Below, one piece after another: positions 191 to 8,419 of a DNA stretch of 64,000 nucleotides. The position numbers were made by a program, and so were the translations under genes. The stretch's first letter is position 1; the number at the start of each line of letters is the position of its first letter. The notes beneath the pieces were generated by a model that saw only the letters and a list, made by a program, of their open reading frames with translations, made no database searches and was not told the DNA's origin. The stretch is from contig JBDREN010000218.1 of the NCBI GenBank assembly GCA_043819795.1, positions 36,857-100,856 on the forward strand, written 5' to 3'. The DNA comes from Elusimicrobiota bacterium. Its GTDB lineage: Bacteria > Elusimicrobiota > Elusimicrobia > UBA1565.

Positions 191-218
191 TTGACAAGTC
201 AAGGTTTCCGGGTATACT
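191..218 (+). promoter_or_regulatory. sigma70-like promoter: -35 TTGACA (191-196), 16-nt spacer, -10 TATACT (213-218)
   Basis: Read directly from sequence. It is AT-rich in an otherwise GC-rich context and lies ~200 nt upstream of the first ORF of the motor cluster. Confidence 0.4.
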
Positions 219-294
219 AATATTGTAGGATTCCCGACGAGACTTTGGGCGCGTTCGAAGTGCGGGCTGAGCGTGCCGGTGATCGGTCCCGGAC

Positions 295-375
295 GGGCGA
301 TAAAGGCAAACCCGGTGCAAGCCGGGGGCGCAAAGCCATGAACCCCGCGTGAGCGGGGAAGTCAGGCTACCGAAC
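295..375 (+). promoter_or_regulatory. candidate c-di-GMP-I (GEMM) riboswitch in 5' leader
   Basis: Two hallmark conserved segments are present at correct spacing: AAAGGCAAACC (301-312) and GGCGCAAAGCC (326-336). Compare the GEMM-I consensus GGCAAACC ... ACGCAAAGCC. A hairpin CCGG-UGCAAG-CCGG lies between them. A GNRA hairpin CCCCGC-GUGA-GCGGGG (341-356) follows. The element sits between the promoter and the start codon. Confidence 0.4.
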
Positions 376-429
376 ATAATGGCCCAAGACGCTGTAGGGG
401 GGTTCGCCCCCGAGTCGAGGATGCGGCCC

Positions 430-2004
430 ATGGCAGCGCGCGTGCGCGCGGCGATGGGTCTTTTTGCGCTCTCGGCCCTGCTCGTCCCCGCTCCCGAGGT
501 CCTGGCCGGACAGTCCGGCGGCCAGCCGGGGGCGTTCCTGCAGTTCGGCGTCGGCGCCCGGGCCCTCGGGATGGGCGGCGCCTTCTACGCGATCGCGGAC
601 GACGCGACCGCGGCCTACTGGAACCCCGCCGGCCTCGCCTACCTGCAGCGCAAGGAGATCACCACGATGCAGGCGGCCCTCTTCGAGGACACGCAGTACA
701 CCTACATCGGCTACGCCCATCCGACCGCCACGAAGGGGACCTTCGCTTTGGGCGTCACCCAGCTCGCCTCGGACGGCTTCGAGAAAGTGGACGCCGTATT
801 CGACCCGAGCACCGGACAGCCCACGAGCATCACCCAGAGCGGGACGTTCTCCGACGAGAAGCGGGCCATCGCGCTGTCCTGGGGCCGCGAGGCGACGGAG
901 ACGATGTCCTTCGGGCTCTCGGCGAAGCAGGTCACCCGCAAGCTGGACTACTCCTCCGACAGCCACATGGCGCTCGACATCGCGGCGATGCGCGCCATGG
1001 GACCGTACTACCGGCTGGCGCTCGGCATCCAGAACGTATTCAGCAGGAGCTCGGGCGACACCGACGACACCTTCCCGGTGATCGTGAAGATAGGCAACGG
1101 CCTGAGGATGTTCAACGAGCGGCTGGCGCTCGGGTTCGACTTGCAGAAGGCCCAGGACGCCGACATCAACTGGCGCTTCGGCGGCGAGTACTGGGCGGCC
1201 CGCTGGTTCGCCTTCCGCTTCGGGATCCTGGCGGCCCCCCAGATCCAGGAGACGGACTTCGGGTTCGGCTTCCGCTTCCGCCGCGTGCAGTTCGACATCG
1301 CGCAGGGCATCCACGCCCTCGGCTCCAGCACGCGTTTCTCGGTGGCCTTCCGCTTCGGCCGCTCGCGCACGGACCGGTCGGCCGACAAGACCAAGCTGCT
1401 CATCCAGCAGGGCTTCGAGGCGTTCCGCGAGGGCGACTTCCAGCTCGCGACGCTGCGTCTCAACCAGGCCCTGGACGCGGCGCCGCACAACAAGCAGGTC
1501 AGGGCCATGCTGGCGCGCCTGCAGGCTGTGGTCGACTTGGTGCCGCAGGCGACCGGCGGCGAGGAGTTCCAGACCTACGTGCGCAAGGGCGTGATCGCCT
1601 ACGTCGACGGCCGTGACCTGAGGGGCTCGGTCAACGCGCTGCGCCACGCCCACAACAAGAACCCGAAGGACGACAAGCTGCTCTCGCTCTTGAACATCGT
1701 CGAGAAGGAGGGGGGCGTCGGCGAGCTCACGCGCCGCGGCGAGGGCCCGGAGATCTTCACGTTCATCGACCAGAAGCTCTACGACGCCCGCCAGGCTATC
1801 TACGACGGCAAGCTGGACCTCGCGATCCGCCGGTCGCAGGACGTGCTGGATCTCGAGCCCGTCAACGTCGTCGCTCTCGAGATCATGGGCTCGGCGTTCT
1901 ACCTGATGGAGGAGAAAGAGAAGGCGAAGGCGGTCTGGAAGCGGGTCCTGGAGGTCGATCCGGAGAACGCGGTCGTCGCTGAGTTCGTCAAGCAGATCCA
2001 GTAA
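430..2004 (+). CDS. secreted outer-membrane beta-barrel-like protein (PorV/FadL-like N-terminal motif) with C-terminal TPR repeats
   Basis: The ORF is 349..2004 in the track. The probable start is ATG 430 (GAGG 9 nt upstream) or ATG 421. A signal peptide MAARVRAAMGLFALSALLVPAPEVLA is present. The motif GARALGMGGAFYAIADDATAAYWNPAGLA is typical of PorV/FadL-like OM barrels. The C-terminal ~190 aa is TPR-like. Confidence 0.6.
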   Translation: MAARVRAAMGLFALSALLVPAPEVLAGQSGGQPGAFLQFGVGARALGMGGAFYAIADDATAAYWNPAGLAYLQRKEITTMQAALFEDTQYTYIGYAHPTATKGTFALGVTQLASDGFEKVDAVFDPSTGQPTSITQSGTFSDEKRAIALSWGREATETMSFGLSAKQVTRKLDYSSDSHMALDIAAMRAMGPYYRLALGIQNVFSRSSGDTDDTFPVIVKIGNGLRMFNERLALGFDLQKAQDADINWRFGGEYWAARWFAFRFGILAAPQIQETDFGFGFRFRRVQFDIAQGIHALGSSTRFSVAFRFGRSRTDRSADKTKLLIQQGFEAFREGDFQLATLRLNQALDAAPHNKQVRAMLARLQAVVDLVPQATGGEEFQTYVRKGVIAYVDGRDLRGSVNALRHAHNKNPKDDKLLSLLNIVEKEGGVGELTRRGEGPEIFTFIDQKLYDARQAIYDGKLDLAIRRSQDVLDLEPVNVVALEIMGSAFYLMEEKEKAKAVWKRVLEVDPENAVVAEFVKQIQ

Positions 2005-2029
2005 GCCTTCCGACGCCGAGCCCGAGGGC

Positions 2030-2062
2030 GGTCGTCCCGGGAGTCCCGTTTTTCGCCGTCAT
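2030..2062 (+). terminator. possible intrinsic terminator (short GC stem CGGGA-G-TCCCG followed by TTTTT)
   Basis: A T5 run at 2056-2060 follows a short GC-rich hairpin immediately after the stop of the first gene. The stem is weak. Confidence 0.25.
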
Positions 2063-2131
2063 TAAAAATGTAACAACAATATATACACTTATAGGTAAGG
2101 ATCCGGCCGGCGTCGCGTCCGGACCCACTCT

Positions 2132-4114
2132 ATGCGCTATAGGCTCGCGGCTTTCCTGCTGACGCTCTGGCTCCCGGTCCGGGGGGCCCAGGCGGCTATC
2201 GAGGTGCCGAGGATGTCCCTCGTCGAGCGCCGGGAGCAGATCGTCCGGGAGGTCCGGGAGCGCATCCAGACCGAGATCCTGGACCGGGTCCTTGGCGCGG
2301 GCAAGGCATCGGTCTGGGTCGACATCGAGCTCGAGATGCGGACCGGCCGCAAGGAGAACCTGCGCGGCGGGGCCGGCGTCGCGGGGAGGTTCAAGGGCAG
2401 CCCCGGTCCGGGGGGCGGCGCGGGCGGCGCCTTCAAGACGCAGTACATCCTCCCCGGGATACCGAAGCCCAAGAGCATCGTCGGCCAGGAGGATCCCCAG
2501 CGCCTCGGGGCGTCCCAGGAGCAGACGGCCCAGCAGGTCAAGACCGTGCAGGAGGAGGTCTACACCCAGGAGGAGGTGATCAAGAGGTTCAAGGTGACGG
2601 TGATTCACGACGCCTCCGTGGCGAAAACGAAGCTCGACGAGGTCCGCAGGCTGGTCATGGAGGCGATGGGCAAATACAAGGTCCAGAAGGACGACATCGT
2701 GTTCCGGCCCGCGGGCTTCGACACCGTGACGACGGATTGGCTGGACAAGGTCAAGGAGCCCAAGGTATATATCCCGCTTGTGTACGCGTTCCTGCTGTTG
2801 CTTCTGCTATCATTCCTGTTCGGGCCTGTGTCCCGCTTCCTCGGGCGCTACACGGAGGCCCTGGCCCAGAAGCCCGCCGCCGAGGTGAACGTCGAGTCCA
2901 ATATCGAGTCCCCGGAGGGGGAGGGCGGCGGCGGCGGCGTCGGCGGCGCCGGCGGCGCGTTGAGCGGCGGCGAGGATAGCAAGCTGGACCTCATGCTCGG
3001 GCGTCAGGCTCCCGAGGAGGACGATATGAAGCGGTTCGAGCCCTTTTCCTACATCAACGAGGAGAACCTCAAGCGCCTGGCCCAGATGTTCCTCTTGCGG
3101 CGGGAGGAGCCCTGGCTGATCGCGGTGGTCCTCAGCTACATCAGGCCCGAGTACGCGCGCCAGGTGCTGACCTTCCTCCCGGTGGAGCTGCAGGCCAAGG
3201 TGGCCGTGGAGTCCCTCACCGTGCGCCAGATGACCCGGGAGCAGGTCAAGGCCATCGATCAGGACATCAAGGACAACGTGGACTTCGTGGTCGGCGGCGT
3301 CGAGCGCCTCACCCGGATGCTGGAGGAGGCCGACACCCCGACCCGGATGAACATCCTGGAGTACCTGCAGAACGAGAAGCCGGTCGTCTACGAGTACGTG
3401 CGCAAGTCGGTCCTCCTCTTCGAGGACATCTCGAGCTTCCCGGACCGGGAGATGCAGCTGGTGGTCCGCGAGCTCAAGACCGAGACCATGGCCCGCGCTT
3501 TGCAGGGGGCGGCGCCCGAGGTGGTCAACAAGTTCTTCAACAATATGTCGGCCGGCGCGGGCTCGCTGCTCAAGGAGTCCATGCAGTACCAGAAAGAGCC
3601 GACGGCCGCTCAGATCGAGGAGGAGCGGGCCAATATCCTGGACCAGATCAAGACCATGGAGAAGGAGGGAAAGATCAGCGTCCGCGAGCGGGCCCAGGAG
3701 GGCGCCGGCTTCCAGGAGGAGCTGGCCAGCGACTCGGTGCGCGGCGCCCGCTTCAGCACGCTGGCCGGACTCGGCATCGGCAAGCCGGGCGGCCCCGGAA
3801 CGCCCGAGCGGGCCCCGCGCCCCGAGGCATCCGAGAGCCGCGCCCAGGCCGACCCGGCCGAGGCCCGGAGGTATTTCGACGCCGGGATGCGGTACCTTCA
3901 GGCCGGGAACATGGACGAGGCGGTGCGGTACCTCCGGCACGCCGTCGCGCTGGCCCCCGATTTCTGGGACGCCTACTCGTACCTCGGCCAAGGGCTCTAT
4001 CATTCGGGACGCCTGGCGGAGGCGGTGGAGTGCTACGAGAAGTATCTCGAGCACAAGCCCGACCCGGCCCTGAAGGCCTGGTTGGACGGTTTCAAGACGC
4101 AGACGAAGGCTTAG
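2132..4114 (+). CDS. FliF-like periplasmic segment / TM / FliG (middle + C-terminal torque domain) fusion protein with C-terminal TPR
   Basis: N-terminal signal/TM (LAAFLLTLWLPV). The periplasmic part has FliF-like motifs (SVWVDIELE; KRFKVTVIHDAS; KDDIVFRPAGF just before the TM helix VYIPLVYAFLLLLLLSFLF). A FliG_M-like segment follows (EPWLIAVVLSYIRPEYARQVLTFLPVELQAKVAVESL). A FliG_C torque-helix motif is present (LLFEDISSFPDREMQLVVREL...FFNNMSAGAGSLLKESM). The last ~120 aa are TPR. An AT-rich promoter-like stretch lies at 2080-2110. Confidence 0.7.
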   Translation: MRYRLAAFLLTLWLPVRGAQAAIEVPRMSLVERREQIVREVRERIQTEILDRVLGAGKASVWVDIELEMRTGRKENLRGGAGVAGRFKGSPGPGGGAGGAFKTQYILPGIPKPKSIVGQEDPQRLGASQEQTAQQVKTVQEEVYTQEEVIKRFKVTVIHDASVAKTKLDEVRRLVMEAMGKYKVQKDDIVFRPAGFDTVTTDWLDKVKEPKVYIPLVYAFLLLLLLSFLFGPVSRFLGRYTEALAQKPAAEVNVESNIESPEGEGGGGGVGGAGGALSGGEDSKLDLMLGRQAPEEDDMKRFEPFSYINEENLKRLAQMFLLRREEPWLIAVVLSYIRPEYARQVLTFLPVELQAKVAVESLTVRQMTREQVKAIDQDIKDNVDFVVGGVERLTRMLEEADTPTRMNILEYLQNEKPVVYEYVRKSVLLFEDISSFPDREMQLVVRELKTETMARALQGAAPEVVNKFFNNMSAGAGSLLKESMQYQKEPTAAQIEEERANILDQIKTMEKEGKISVRERAQEGAGFQEELASDSVRGARFSTLAGLGIGKPGGPGTPERAPRPEASESRAQADPAEARRYFDAGMRYLQAGNMDEAVRYLRHAVALAPDFWDAYSYLGQGLYHSGRLAEAVECYEKYLEHKPDPALKAWLDGFKTQTKA

Positions 4115-4130
4115 AATCGGGTGGAGCATC

Positions 4131-4241
4131 ATGGCAGACGAACCGGCTAAGAAAAACGACCCGTTCAACCCTCATGGGTTCCCTCCTCCTCCGCCTCCCG
4201 GCGGACACGGGACCGCCCCTTCTTCGGAAGAGGCCGGGTAG
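4131..4241 (+). other. 36-codon Pro-rich ORF ending in in-frame TAG. It is in the same frame as the downstream large coiled-coil ORF: a possible disrupted N-terminus, readthrough site or uORF.
   Basis: ATG 4131 ... TAG 4239-4241. Translation is MADEPAKKNDPFNPHGFPPPPPPGGHGTAPSSEEAG*. The next in-frame sense codons (GAPPLPGPGGPPPLPGG...) have the same Pro/Gly-rich composition. Confidence 0.4.
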
Positions 4242-4253
4242 GGCGCGCCGCCT

Positions 4254-6587
4254 TTGCCCGGCCCGGGCGGGCCGCCCCCGCTGCCGGGTGGCGAGGTCCC
4301 TTTGCCGCCCAGCTTCGCGCCCGGATTCGGGACGCCGACCTCTTTCGGCCCGCCGCCCGGCCGCCTGACGCCTCCCGAAGGGGGCGCTCCTTCCCGGCCG
4401 CCCTACGCCCAGGCCGGCCCGGGGCCGGGACCCGGCTACGGCTACGAAAGGCCGGACCCGGGGGCCGCCGCCCGGCCTCAGCCTCCCGCGGGGCCCACCG
4501 AGGCGGAGCGGCGTATCGCCCAGCTAGAGAGCAGGCTTCAGAAGGAGCACGAGAAGGTCCTCCTGGCGAACCTCAAGTCCCAGGAGGAGAAGACGATCGC
4601 CGCGCGCGTCGAGAACTCCATCAAGGAGGTCCAGGACAAGCTCAGGCAGCAGAGGCGCGAGGCGGAGCACGAGGAGAACCGTCTCAAGCTCGACGCGAAG
4701 GTCCAGGAGCTGGAGAACCGCCTCGTCCAGGAGCGGGAGACATGGGTCTCCACGATCAAGGGCCAGGTCCAGAACCGTGAGTCGCAGGACAGGGAGATCG
4801 AGTCCCACTTCACGATGCGCATCCAGGAGATGGAGCGCCGCTGGCTGGAGGAGAAGGCCCACTGGCAGCGCACCATCACCGGCAAGGACGAGGAGCTGCG
4901 CAAGGCCCGGGAGCTCATCGAGAAGCTCGAGTCGGTCGAGAAGGAGTCCCATAAGATCGCGCACGAGCGCAAGACCCTCGACGAGCGGGTCAACGAGCTC
5001 TCGAAGAACAACGCGGAGCTCGAGGCCAAGGTCCGCGGATCGGCGGATCGCGAACGGGACTACTTCCAGGTGAAGGCCGATCTCGACCGGGCGCGTGACC
5101 AGGTGCGGACGTACCAGGAGAAGCTCGAGCGCGACCTGGCGGCCATGCGCGCCTCGGCCCGGGAGCGCGAGGAGCGCCTGCTGGCCGACAACGAGAGGCT
5201 GCAGAACGAGCTGATGACGGTCGCGCAGCGGGTGCGCACCGAGTACGAGGCCGAGATCAAGCGGATCCGCGCGGGGCACGAGACCGAGTCCAACAAGGCC
5301 CGCTCCGAGCACGAGGCCGAGTCCAACAAGGCCCGCTCCGAGCACGAGGCCGCCTACAAGAAGGCGCGCGCGCAGGCGGACCTGGCGAGCGCCGCGCTGC
5401 AGCGGATGCGGGCGGTGGGCAGCGCCCTGGAGAGGCAGGTCGCCTCCCTGCGCATGCAGGCCGAGCAGGCCAAGAAGCTCAAGGACGAGGCGCAGCGCGT
5501 CAACGAGCGGTACAAGGCGGAGTTCCTCGTGCTGCAGCGCCGATGGCAGGACCGCGAAGGGGAGATCCGCGAGCAGGCCGAGCGCCATCACAAGAAGGAG
5601 CTCGACGCCGAGAGGACGAAGATCAAGCTCCGCGCCCAGGAGGAGATCCAAAGCCGCGTCCTCCGGCTGGAGCAGCAGCTCCGCAAGGAGACGGAGGCCG
5701 AGGTCGTCGAGCGCGTTCGGGCGGTCCGGGCCGAGATGGAGCGGGAGCTCGCGGAGCGCTCGCGCAAGATCCAGGCGGAGCTCGGGGAGGTGCGCCGCAA
5801 GCTCGAAGGCGAGCTGGAGCGCAAGAGCGCGGAGGCGGCGCAGCGGGAGACGCAGTCCAACGAGAAGCTCCTCAAGAAGGAGGCCGAGCTCATCAGCCTG
5901 CGCGCCTCGCTCGAGGAGGCCCGGGGGCGCCTTGCCAATGGCGAGGAGTCGAAGATCGAGGCGGCGCGCGAGCGCCTCGACGTCGAGAAGGCTCTGGCGG
6001 CCGAGCGCGAGAGGCTGCGCGTCCTGGACGCGGGGCTGGCCGAGCTCAAGCAGAAGCTCGCCGAGGAGGAAAAGCGCGTCCGCGCCCTGTCCGATGAGAA
6101 GGCGGAGTGGGGGCGCCTGCGGCAGAGCCACGAGGACCGGCAGGGGGAGCTTCGCCGCAACGTCGCCGCCTTGAGCAACGGCCTGGCCGAGGCCGAGCGG
6201 GAACGGGAGGAGCTTCAGGCGGAGGGCGTCGAGTCGCGGGACAAGGCCGCGAAGCTCGAGGCCGATCATGCCCGCCGGAAAGAGGTCTGGCGGCGCCAGC
6301 TGGAGCTCGTGCGCCAGGACGCCGACGCCCGCATCCGGGCCGTCGAGGCCGAGCGCAACGCGGCCATGCGCCGGCTCGACGAGGCCTCCTCGGAGAAGGG
6401 CGCGTCGCTGGCGGACCGCATCGCGGGAGTGTTCAAGAAGAAGCCCGCGCCGCCGGCGCCCCCGGCCCCCCCGGCCCCCCGACCCAGCTCCCCTAGCGGC
6501 CCGTGGCAAAAGTATTTCGGATGGCGAAATCGCTTGGGGCGAGCCGAGCCAAGGCGCGACGAGGGAGCATCCCTCGACGGGATGTGA
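4254..6587 (+). CDS. large Pro-rich N-terminus + ~650-aa coiled-coil protein (SMC/myosin-tail-like heptads), PAPPAPPAPP near C-terminus
   Basis: Long ORF with TTG start at 4254 and no ATG for ~170 codons. Strongly E/R/K/A/L-rich heptad composition. The antisense ORF 4524..6779 is an artefact. Confidence 0.6.
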   Translation: MPGPGGPPPLPGGEVPLPPSFAPGFGTPTSFGPPPGRLTPPEGGAPSRPPYAQAGPGPGPGYGYERPDPGAAARPQPPAGPTEAERRIAQLESRLQKEHEKVLLANLKSQEEKTIAARVENSIKEVQDKLRQQRREAEHEENRLKLDAKVQELENRLVQERETWVSTIKGQVQNRESQDREIESHFTMRIQEMERRWLEEKAHWQRTITGKDEELRKARELIEKLESVEKESHKIAHERKTLDERVNELSKNNAELEAKVRGSADRERDYFQVKADLDRARDQVRTYQEKLERDLAAMRASAREREERLLADNERLQNELMTVAQRVRTEYEAEIKRIRAGHETESNKARSEHEAESNKARSEHEAAYKKARAQADLASAALQRMRAVGSALERQVASLRMQAEQAKKLKDEAQRVNERYKAEFLVLQRRWQDREGEIREQAERHHKKELDAERTKIKLRAQEEIQSRVLRLEQQLRKETEAEVVERVRAVRAEMERELAERSRKIQAELGEVRRKLEGELERKSAEAAQRETQSNEKLLKKEAELISLRASLEEARGRLANGEESKIEAARERLDVEKALAAERERLRVLDAGLAELKQKLAEEEKRVRALSDEKAEWGRLRQSHEDRQGELRRNVAALSNGLAEAEREREELQAEGVESRDKAAKLEADHARRKEVWRRQLELVRQDADARIRAVEAERNAAMRRLDEASSEKGASLADRIAGVFKKKPAPPAPPAPPAPRPSSPSGPWQKYFGWRNRLGRAEPRRDEGASLDGM

Positions 6588-6669
6588 CCGAGGAGCAACG
6601 CGGGCGCAGGCCGCTTCCAAGCGATTGCAGGCCCCGGAAGACTTTTGCCACGGGCTGCCAGGACGACGC

Positions 6670-6897
6670 ATGATCGAGCTGACGCGGCTCAATGGGTCGA
6701 GGTTCACCATCAACGCCGAGCTCATCGAGACGCTCGAGGCGGCGCCGAAGAGCACCATTGTCCACCTGGCGACGAACAATCGCTACAACGTCCGCGAGCC
6801 TGTGGACGAGATCGTCGAAAAGGTGGTAGAGTACCGGAGACGGGTGAACGCCGGACGCAAGGCCGTCAACCCGATCCAAGGCTTCGAGAGAGCGTAA
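6670..6897 (+). CDS. flbD: flagellar protein FlbD
   Basis: 75-aa protein MIELTRLNGSRFTINAELIETLEAAPKSTIVHLATNNRYNVREPVDEIVEKVVEYRR matches the FlbD family. It sits directly upstream of motA, as in spirochete and Firmicute mot operons. Confidence 0.75.
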   Translation: MIELTRLNGSRFTINAELIETLEAAPKSTIVHLATNNRYNVREPVDEIVEKVVEYRRRVNAGRKAVNPIQGFERA

Positions 6898-6903
6898 AGC
6901 GCC

Positions 6904-7710
6904 ATGGACATCGCAACCGTGATGGGGATCCTCGTATTCATCGGCCTCGCGGTCGCCGCCATCCTCATGGCCGAGGGCTTCAAAGGGTTTGCCCCCTTCG
7001 CGAACCCGGAGGCCTTCCTGGTGGTCATGGGAGGGACGTTCTGCGCGACCTTGGTCCACTACCCGCTCAAGCAGGTGGTGGGGCTCGGCAAGATCCTGCG
7101 CAAGGTGATGCTCCAGCAGACGGAGGACACGACCCATATCGTCGGGACCTTCGTGGCCCTCTGCCAGAAGGCCAAGCGGGACGGGTTTTTGGCCCTGCAG
7201 GACGACGTCAACAGGATCGACGACGATTTTCTGAAGCGCGGCGTCCAGCTCGTCGTGGACGGGTCCGATCAGGAGTTCATCCGCAACATGCTCGAGACCG
7301 AGATCGGCTTCATCCGGGAGCGGCACAAGATCGGCCAGGAGATCTTCAACGCGATGGGGACCTATTCCCCGGCCTTCGGCATCATCGGCACCGTTCTGGC
7401 CATGGTGCTGATGCTGGCCAACGTGGACGACGTCGCGGCCGTCCCCCGGCGGATGGCGTTCGCGCTCGCGGCCGCCTTCTACGGGCTGGGCTCCGGCTAC
7501 CTGCTGTTCCTTCCCATGGGCGGGAAGCTGCGGCGGCGTTCCGAGGAGGAGCTGCTCGTCAAGGAGATCGTCATCCGGGGCGTGCTGCTCCTTCAGAGCG
7601 GGGCGGCGCCGAGCGTGGTCGAGGCGAACCTCAAGGCCTACCTCGAGCCCTCGCAGCGCGTGCTGGTCAAGGCCCCGGCGGAGGAGGCCAAGACGGCGGG
7701 GCCGGAGTAG
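6904..7710 (+). CDS. motA: flagellar stator protein MotA (MotA/TolQ/ExbB proton channel family)
   Basis: 268 aa. Four TM segments. Conserved C-terminal TM3/TM4 region (AFGIIGTVLAMVLMLANV ... ALAAAFYGLGSGYLLFLPM) and a cytoplasmic loop typical of MotA. Confidence 0.8.
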   Translation: MDIATVMGILVFIGLAVAAILMAEGFKGFAPFANPEAFLVVMGGTFCATLVHYPLKQVVGLGKILRKVMLQQTEDTTHIVGTFVALCQKAKRDGFLALQDDVNRIDDDFLKRGVQLVVDGSDQEFIRNMLETEIGFIRERHKIGQEIFNAMGTYSPAFGIIGTVLAMVLMLANVDDVAAVPRRMAFALAAAFYGLGSGYLLFLPMGGKLRRRSEEELLVKEIVIRGVLLLQSGAAPSVVEANLKAYLEPSQRVLVKAPAEEAKTAGPE

Positions 7711-7717
7711 AGCGAGG

Positions 7718-8419
7718 ATGCCGATCCGGCCGCCGAAGGGCTTCATCGAAGAGAGCGACCCCCGGGTCTGCCAGATCGGGCACCCGGCCCCCCCTTGGCT
7801 CATCAACTACGCCGACCTGATGACGGAGATGGTCTGCTTCTTCGTCATCCTCTACGCGCTCTCCGCGGCCCTCAGCAAGGACGTGCAGAACGCCCGCGAG
7901 CAGATACAGAAGATGATGGCCGAGGAGGAGCTGGTCGGCGAGGTGAAGGTGGACCGCGAAGGGATGAAGATCTCCCTCGAGGAGCAGGGGGAGATGGCGC
8001 ATTTCAAGAGCGGCTACGCGGAGCTGACCCCCGTCATGCGCAGCGCCCTCGGCAAGATCGCCCCGACGCTGCGGGACCTGGCGCGCAAGAACCACGAGAT
8101 CATCATCGAGGGCCATACCGACGACGTCCCGATGCACGACCAGTACTACGCGTCGAACTGGGAGCTTTCCACCGCGCGCGCGACGGCGGTCGTGGAGCAC
8201 ATGATCCGGGATAACGGCCTCCCCGCCGGCTGCATGGCGGCCATCGGCTACGGGAAGCACCGTCCGATCGCTCCCAACGACACGCTCGCCAACCGGGCGC
8301 GCAACCGCCGGGTGGTCTTTTTCGTGAAGAACCCGCCGATGAGCAAGGGCGAGAGCTGCAGGAATCTCTCCGCGCCGGCGGCCGGTCCGCCGCGGAAGAC
8401 GCCGGAAGAGGGGAAATGA
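7718..8419 (+). CDS. motB: flagellar stator protein MotB (OmpA-like peptidoglycan-binding domain)
   Basis: N-terminal TM helix INYADLMTEMVCFFVILYAL. OmpA-like C-terminal domain (IIIEGHTDDVP ... NWELSTARATAV ... NRARNRRVVFFV). Confidence 0.8.
   Translation: MPIRPPKGFIEESDPRVCQIGHPAPPWLINYADLMTEMVCFFVILYALSAALSKDVQNAREQIQKMMAEEELVGEVKVDREGMKISLEEQGEMAHFKSGYAELTPVMRSALGKIAPTLRDLARKNHEIIIEGHTDDVPMHDQYYASNWELSTARATAVVEHMIRDNGLPAGCMAAIGYGKHRPIAPNDTLANRARNRRVVFFVKNPPMSKGESCRNLSAPAAGPPRKTPEEGK

Follow-up and report, generated by a model that had tools for sequence, protein, structure and literature searches.

A probable class I c-di-GMP riboswitch at the head of a conserved motor-like operon in Elusimicrobia

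The operon and its promoter

Within its first 9 kb, the window (the whole 64-kb stretch of Elusimicrobiota DNA that we analyzed) carries a promoter, a structured leader, and six genes, all on the plus strand:

191-218, plus strand: sigma-70-like promoter (TTGACA at 191-196, a 16-nt spacer, and TATACT at 213-218)
225-297, plus strand: upstream structured leader domain closed by helix P0 (covariation in the leader alignment, fold)
296-375, plus strand: c-di-GMP-I (GEMM-I) aptamer (cmscan, ortholog covariation, RNAalifold)
373-381, plus strand: A-rich linker AACAUA and the probable true start codon, ATG at 379-381 (ortholog ORFs)
382-411, plus strand: early coding region, GCCC plus a hairpin, with putative RNA-level constraint (conservation, folding energy)
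379-2004, plus strand: PorV/PorQ-like (UPF0164) outer-membrane protein with C-terminal TPR repeats (Pfam)
2132-4114, plus strand: FliF_C/FliG-TPR, that is, FliF_C/FliG_M/FliG_C with TPR (Pfam)
4254-6587, plus strand: coiled-coil protein of about 770 amino acids
ending at 6897, plus strand: FlbD (Pfam)
6904-7710, plus strand: MotA (Pfam)
7718-8419, plus strand: MotB (Pfam)

The product of the first gene, which has hundreds of homologs, is the same in sequence as a protein from an Elusimicrobiota MAG that NCBI names "PorV/PorQ family protein". The order of the six genes (window 379-8419) is kept across more than 70 Elusimicrobia species, wherever the flanking sequence suffices. We saw no other flagellar genes beside this cluster of stator-like and rotor-like parts. 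The first-pass annotation of this DNA had proposed a candidate riboswitch upstream of a MotAB/FliG-like cluster. The cluster is there, but the first gene itself encodes the PorV/PorQ-like outer-membrane protein with TPR repeats.

The TTGACA/TATACT promoter that had been placed upstream of the element is found at 191-218, where it matches 11 of the 12 consensus positions (0.1 such sites are expected in shuffled sequence). Of 71 orthologous loci, 70 have the same pair of hexamers 5' of the aptamer. Transcription is predicted to start near position 225, which would give a 5' UTR of about 155 nt. An inverted repeat (TTGAC-AA-GTCAA, 191-202) overlaps the −35 hexamer, and its TTGACAAGTCAAG string recurs in many of the orthologous promoters; it could be an operator for a transcription factor that acts on the same operon. 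Further 5', at 49-69, is a G+C-rich hairpin (GCCGCAGG-GCAAG-CCUGCGGC) that is not followed by a U-run; the preceding transcription unit may end there.

A complete GEMM-I aptamer

Scanning the window against Rfam 15 with cmscan identified a complete GEMM-I (c-di-GMP-I type) aptamer at 296-375 on the plus strand. The match covers model positions 1-80 of 80 and scores 63.3 bits, with an E-value of 3.2e-14 in a 1.5-kb search and 1.4e-12 across the whole window. The top family is not RF01051 (c-di-GMP-I) but RF03167 (c-di-GMP-I-GGC), whose gathering score is 59; we return to this label below. No second riboswitch match was found anywhere else in the 64-kb window, either with Rfam or with a covariance model that we built from orthologs. 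The helices of the aptamer, all on the plus strand, are as follows:

298-299 with 371-372 (C298-G372 and G299-C371), plus strand: P1 (GEMM-I model)
306-307 with 330-331, plus strand: P1a (GEMM-I model, RNAalifold)
311-316 with 321-326, plus strand: P1b, capped by GCAA at 317-320 (GEMM-I model, RNAalifold)
334-337 and 339-341 with 362-368, plus strand: first part of P3 (GEMM-I model, RNAalifold)
343-348 with 353-358, plus strand: outer part of P3, capped by GUGA at 349-352 (GEMM-I model, RNAalifold)

The first conserved motif of the family, GGCAAACC, is at 305-312, just where the first-pass annotation had put it. The second motif, GCGCAAAGCC, is also present, but at 328-337 rather than at 327-336 as had been claimed, so those coordinates were one base off. 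The short hairpin said to lie between the motifs is P1b (CCCGGU-GCAA-GCCGGG, 311-326), and the GNRA-capped hairpin said to follow them is the outer part of P3 (CCCCGC-GUGA-GCGGGG, 343-358). P1, without whose pairing the candidate was to be given up, can form, although it is short (C298-G372 and G299-C371). In unconstrained folding, these two pairs have a probability of about zero, and it takes about 8 kcal/mol to enforce the aptamer; the fold would therefore need energy from the ligand or from tertiary contacts. A terminator-like site on the minus strand, at 326-311, is merely the reverse complement of P1b plus UAAAGGCAAA, and we dismissed it as an artifact.

Conservation and covariation among orthologs

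A scan of species-representative genomes yielded 78 orthologous loci, nearly all of them labelled Elusimicrobia. A simple motif search found the aptamer 5' of the homolog in 59 of these, with clear compensatory changes in P1b. A covariance model built from the ortholog alignment found it directly 5' of the homolog in 73 of the 78; the other five all end short on the 5' side. Across 919 kb, this model found no aptamer anywhere but directly upstream of the homolog. Each of the 73 loci has a single aptamer, except for one (L076) that has two.

In a MAFFT alignment of the 57 distinct orthologous aptamers, 95.1% of the cells in the GEMM-I structure are paired, while in slid controls (with the 3' partner moved by 1-3 columns) only 32-45% are. 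Compensatory changes that affect both sides occur in 14 of the 24 pairs, and none of 500 shuffles reached the observed values. RNAalifold, unaided, recovers P1a, P1b, and P3. Covariation is uninformative on P1, which has just two, invariant pairs: C298-G372 is C-G in 56 of the 57 distinct aptamers, and G299-C371 is G-C in all 57. The first-pass annotation had offered an Rfam threshold and covariation in homologous leaders as checks on its GEMM-I candidate, and on both counts the candidate is upheld: it passes an Rfam gathering score within the c-di-GMP-I clan and its homologous leaders show abundant compensatory covariation. Thus, the leader element is very probably a real and conserved class I c-di-GMP riboswitch, to judge from its sequence, with the canonical pocket that we describe below.

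The tetraloop of P1b is GCAA, GUAA, or GAAA in 67 of 75 orthologous aptamers, and the remainder have an insertion in P1b. In seven loci (L008, L058, L064, L066, L067, L068, and L077), 50-65 nt replace the tetraloop, and these insertions appear to hold further hairpins with GAAA and GYAA loops. In L076, the two GEMM-I aptamers (3181-3256 and 3477-3589 of that locus) are about 220 nt apart and lie 5' of the most divergent homolog (47% identity); a short ORF of 60 codons follows the first of them. A literature search that paired Elusimicrobia with c-di-GMP riboswitches found no papers.

The binding pocket, the family label, and the ligand

We number the pocket by the sequence of the Vc2 riboswitch of Vibrio cholerae; the structure line of the model, with its G21-C46 and C22-G45 pairs, is consistent with this numbering. 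The key positions are:

305, plus strand: equivalent of Vc2 G20 (model position 10)
332, plus strand: equivalent of Vc2 A47, which is G in the consensus of the c-di-GMP-I-GGC variant (consensus comparison)
370, plus strand: equivalent of Vc2 C92 (orthologous aptamers), next to A369, the equivalent of A91

In Vc2, G20 and C92 recognize the two guanines of the ligand and A47 lies at the ligand (PMC5888326). More specifically, G20 contacts one guanine (PMC5888326, PMC9481103) and C92 forms a Watson-Crick pair with the other (PMC5888326). All three contact nucleotides of c-di-GMP-I are present in the window, as G305, A332, and C370. Of the 75 orthologous aptamers, 67 have G at the G20 equivalent and the other 8 have A there, while every one has A at the A47 equivalent and C at the C92 equivalent. 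Position 369 is mixed, with A in 50 aptamers and G in 25. The GNRA tetraloop on P1b and the C44-G83 pair between helices are also there (GCAA at 317-320; C329 and G361); C329 is invariant in all 75 aptamers and G361 is invariant in the alignment in which it was scored (A2). G328, the equivalent of A43, is G in 74 of the 75, in contrast to the A in both Rfam consensus sequences.

This raises the question of why Rfam prefers the variant family. A genuine c-di-GMP-I-GGC riboswitch would have an altered pocket and a ligand other than c-di-GMP. Weinberg et al. (2017, PNAS 114:E2077) are said to have used "GGC" to name positions 20/47/92. RF03167 shares a compact 80-nt format and a short P3 with our aptamer, gives the best E-value among the Rfam models, and wins the clan competition both in the window (63.3 bits against a gathering score of 59) and in 14 of 20 orthologous aptamers. 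However, the sequences that set the variant apart are missing. The parent consensus (gggGACGCAAAgCc) and the variant consensus (GGGACGCGAAgCc) differ at one pocket position, Vc2 A47; around it, RF03167 reads ACGCGAAgCc and RF01051 reads GACGCAAAgCc, while the window has GCGCAAAGCC. The variant-defining G at this position is absent from the window (A332) and from all 75 orthologous aptamers. The variant consensus also has G just before the C92 equivalent, where the parent has g/A and the window has A369.

Furthermore, the clan winner is picked by E-value and not by bits, and on close orthologs the parent model gives as many bits or more (54-62 bits on RF01051). For example, RF01051 outscores RF03167 in one ortholog (L005), by 62.1 to 56.3 bits, but E-value mode still shows RF03167. 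At 296-375 of the window, gathering mode reports one more family of the clan (CL00126) that passes its own threshold but is hidden by clan competition. The 20 orthologous loci gave 14 calls to RF03167 (59.5-68 bits) and 6 calls to RF01051 (41-62 bits, with a gathering score of 35), and exactly 14 passing clan matches were hidden among them. Therefore, each ortholog called "GGC" passes a second clan model as well, almost certainly the parent RF01051. So it is from this hidden second family, and not from a displayed score of its own, that we take the window to reach the 35 bits of RF01051.

As A332 is the parental nucleotide that separates parent from variant, "c-di-GMP-I" is the better label on sequence grounds and the Rfam variant label is misleading; that our aptamer belongs to the variant in the true sense seems very improbable. 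The riboswitch belongs to a well-known RNA family, and a standard pipeline does detect it, under the misleading label. More generally, the automatic label c-di-GMP-I-GGC can be assigned to RNAs that have the parental pocket.

Another potential ligand is c-AMP-GMP (3',3'-cGAMP), either as the sole ligand, as in the GEMM-Ib riboswitches of Geobacter and relatives, which have the same fold, or together with c-di-GMP in a promiscuous sensor of both dinucleotides. At the G20 position, G favors c-di-GMP and A favors c-AMP-GMP (PMC9481103, PMC7266159). Eight orthologous leaders (L008, L012, L013, L015, L046, L054, L059, and L069) read AAUAGCAAAC and so have A at this position, the change that is tied to c-AMP-GMP selectivity, which suggests that the lineage has explored c-AMP-GMP specificity in the same genetic context. 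(One of these, L013, is labelled c-di-GMP-I-GGC by Rfam despite its G20A change.) In contrast to GEMM-Ib, the window has G305 and lacks the diagnostic A, as do the 67 orthologous aptamers with G there, and for the window we give c-AMP-GMP hardly any weight. Instead, given the canonical pocket (G305/A332/C370 plus C329/G361), we predict that the ligand is c-di-GMP.

A search of the window for GGDEF, EAL, and HD-GYP domains found no diguanylate cyclase or phosphodiesterase gene. The PorV-like protein does have a GGEEF string (window 1555-1569), which is in its TPR half and inside a conserved block. Pfam finds no GGDEF domain at this string, and it is probably a coincidence.

A conserved domain upstream of the aptamer

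In most leaders, another 75-90 nt separate the promoter from the aptamer. An alignment of 62 leaders shows that this region is closed by a helix, which we term P0. In the window, P0 consists of C233-G297, C234-G296, C235-G295, and G236-C294, and its 3' strand runs straight into the 5' strand of P1. In the RNAalifold structure, P0 joins a conserved 5' (A)UCC(U/C)G with the C(A/G)GG immediately 5' of P1. Standard pairs make up 97.2% of the P0 cells in the MAFFT alignment of these leaders, against 27-52% in slid controls, and none of 500 shuffles reached the P0 score; one pair is split among U-A (26 leaders), C-G (24), and U-G (10). G295 could instead form an outer P1 pair with C375, but these two pair in 79% of sequences, against 97% for G295 with C235 in P0, and we therefore dropped the outer pair.

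In the main clade, there are further covarying helices inside P0, along with the conserved loops GYAGCAUCC and GGGGUUGG. P0 also appears in the minimum-energy fold of 225-300. A covariance model of the domain that was trained without the window detects it at 219-304 (22.9 bits, E = 0.003), although part of this score comes from the first bases of the aptamer. The domain (225-297) has no match to any Rfam family by cmscan. Of 70 orthologs, most have the domain and four (L009, L010, L054, and L058) lack it, which makes it an accessory module.

The simplest role for the upstream domain would be to stack on the 2-bp P1 and stabilize it, with the 3' strand of P1 left free for the ribosome. Alternatively, the domain (about 60-85 nt) could be a second module that senses or binds an effector (a metabolite, protein, or RNA) and gates the aptamer via P0 and P1. 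We consider this unlikely, but if it were true, the leader would be a previously undescribed composite riboswitch with two inputs over a motor-like operon. In either case, a covarying P0 that abuts a 2-bp P1 and closes a conserved upstream RNA domain is new, if a small structural novelty.

The start codon abuts the aptamer

The annotated start of the first gene is ATG 430, which yields a protein of 524 amino acids at NCBI. However, there is an in-frame ATG at 379, which is 51 nt 5' of the annotated start and only 4 nt after the 3' strand of P1. In 71 orthologous loci, a full ORF of about 530-545 amino acids begins with an ATG 1-7 nt (14 nt in one locus) downstream of ..CCGAA, and of the 73 ORFs found, 70 are longer than 500 amino acids. 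Alignments by tblastn with the window protein reach the upstream ATG in many of the loci. Because this ATG opens the full ORF in nearly all orthologs, we believe that the annotated start at 430 is probably wrong and that the real start is ATG 379. The first-pass annotation had put the element upstream of the start codon; if translation starts at ATG 379, then this is truer than the annotated start implies. Starting at ATG 379 adds 17 N-terminal residues before the signal peptide. There is no Shine-Dalgarno motif at a normal spacing from ATG 379, whereas other genes in the window have one.

The beginning of the coding region may also be constrained at the RNA level. In the window, GCCC at 382-385 is followed by a hairpin, GGGGGG-UUCG-CCCCC, at 397-411 (codons 7-11). 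Among the orthologs, AUG-GCC-C or AUG-CCC-G is kept while the residues vary: AUG-GCC-Cxx encodes Q, H, R, or L. A hairpin of a G-run and a C-run is also found at about +19..+35 from the ATG in orthologs, where the codon before GGN is AGG, UGG, or GGG and the residue that precedes the G is R, W, G, or K. The region from +10 to +42 folds at −11.3 kcal/mol; shuffles give −8.7, and control stretches within these ORFs give −4.8 and −7.7. On the other hand, pairing of the +19..+35 hairpin in a fixed register is no better than in a control that was slid by one column, and RNAalifold predicted no structure on the AUG-centred alignment. Overall, the data are suggestive of RNA-level selection on the 397-411 hairpin inside the coding sequence, and the 382-411 region is probably part of the expression platform.

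How might the riboswitch act?

We found no intrinsic terminator on the plus strand in 1-700 and, in particular, no stem with a U-run in 376-700. As there is no terminator and the ATG lies 4 nt after P1, the regulated step is most likely the initiation of translation of the first gene and, through it, of the six-gene operon. We propose that the aptamer would be transcribed from the promoter at 191-218 within the 5' UTR of about 155 nt, and that binding of the ligand would capture C370-G372 into the pocket and P1. In the bound state, the ribosome landing site, which is A-rich and lacks a Shine-Dalgarno sequence, would be pinned against the folded stack of the aptamer and P0. High levels of c-di-GMP would then lower expression, so that this would be an OFF switch.

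Could the riboswitch act on transcription (by intrinsic or Rho-dependent termination) or on mRNA decay instead of on the initiation of translation? Many GEMM-I riboswitches in Firmicutes act through terminators, and a loss of translation would expose the long mRNA of the operon to Rho. This seems quite unlikely because of the absence of a plus-strand stem plus U-run in 376-700 and because the start codon abuts the aptamer in all of the orthologs. Also, no U residues come after the conserved hairpin at 397-411.

As for the direction of the switch, we lean toward OFF: an OFF switch by direct occlusion is favored because the AUG sits so near to P1 in every species. An ON switch is possible but doubtful, and some other mechanism is a little less probable again. 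Predictions of RNA folding for the orthologs were inconsistent when we compared unconstrained folds to aptamer-enforced folds, with and without the upstream leader. Enforcing the aptamer raised the predicted accessibility of the AUG in 31 of 70 orthologs and lowered it in 18. We also tested three candidate duplexes for the expression platform. In two of them, the P1 5' strand pairs with either the AUG region or +10..+55, and in the third, the AUG region itself pairs with +10..+55. In all three, the native duplex energies were no better than those of pairings swapped between orthologs. Only the duplex of the P1 5' strand with the AUG region beat shuffles, and only in about 40% of the orthologs.

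That duplex is the basis for an ON switch with the same aptamer and the same ligand. In the absence of ligand, GGGCGAU (295-301) would pair with AUGGCCC (379-385) and hide the AUG; ligand would form P0 and P1 and free it. The minimum-energy fold of 293-438 (with the upstream leader left out) forms exactly this helix, and over the same segment the probability that the AUG is unpaired rises from 0.42 when unconstrained to 0.97 when the aptamer is enforced. The duplex has an energy of −9.7 kcal/mol, as compared to −5.4 for shuffles, and its strength is similar in about 30 of 73 orthologs. An ON switch would also fit with the GCCC after the AUG being kept at the nucleotide level across differing codons. 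However, the large ACAGGCGAU/AUGCCCGCU clade lacks the helix: the duplex there has an A·C mismatch and an energy of −5.8 kcal/mol, which equals that of shuffles, and the failure of native pairings to outdo ortholog swaps applies here as well. When the full leader is included, the helix leaves the minimum-energy fold of the window and accessibility goes from 0.48 to 0.23 instead of rising. The helix also competes with P0, which covaries strongly. Finally, the spacing of 1-7 nt between the aptamer and the AUG is needed for direct occlusion but is not required by an anti-P1 mechanism. Occlusion of the AUG at high c-di-GMP is thus the reading that we prefer.

Comparison with known riboswitches

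The window has the same architecture as Vc2, the type example of RF01051: P1, P1a/P1b with a GNRA tetraloop, and P3. The family cores GGCAAAC and CGCAAAGCC are conserved in the window, which also has the contact nucleotides G20, A47, and C92 as well as the C44/G83 pair, and the riboswitch likewise lies in a 5' UTR before genes of the envelope and motility type. There are also differences from this type. P1 of the window has just two Watson-Crick pairs, and the 5' flank forms the P0 helix that closes an accessory domain of about 60 nt; the P1b tetraloop is GCAA or GUAA, and not GAAA, in 64 of the 75 aptamers; three bases ahead of the C46 equivalent there is a G (G328) and not the consensus A; and the start codon is 4 nt from the aptamer, with no terminator. 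Unlike RF03167, the window does not have G at the A47 position or G before C92.

A further parallel is Cd1 of Clostridioides difficile, a c-di-GMP-I riboswitch that precedes the flgB flagellar operon and was reportedly described by Sudarsan et al. in 2008. Cd1 acts via a transcription terminator. As in the window, a GEMM-I aptamer heads a long operon with MotA/MotB-type genes, and this likeness supports our expectation that c-di-GMP represses the operon. However, the window has no terminator and its start codon abuts the aptamer. Also, the operon in the window is not flagellar, as it consists only of a PorV-like barrel, a FliF_C/FliG-TPR fusion, a coiled-coil protein, FlbD, and MotAB.

Implications

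For the RNA itself, the novelties are modest: P0 and the upstream domain, a start codon that abuts the aptamer with RNA constraint in the first dozen codons, and the G20/A20 polymorphism. The ortholog set offers natural G20 and A20 versions of the same leader. The ATG adjacent to the aptamer corrects the probable start codon of the first gene. GEMM-I riboswitches are known for genes that concern motility, membranes, and the environment (PMC7266159). If our assignment is right, then the riboswitch ties an uncharacterized PorV-like/FliG-like/FlbD/MotAB operon to c-di-GMP and hence to the choice between motile and sessile life.
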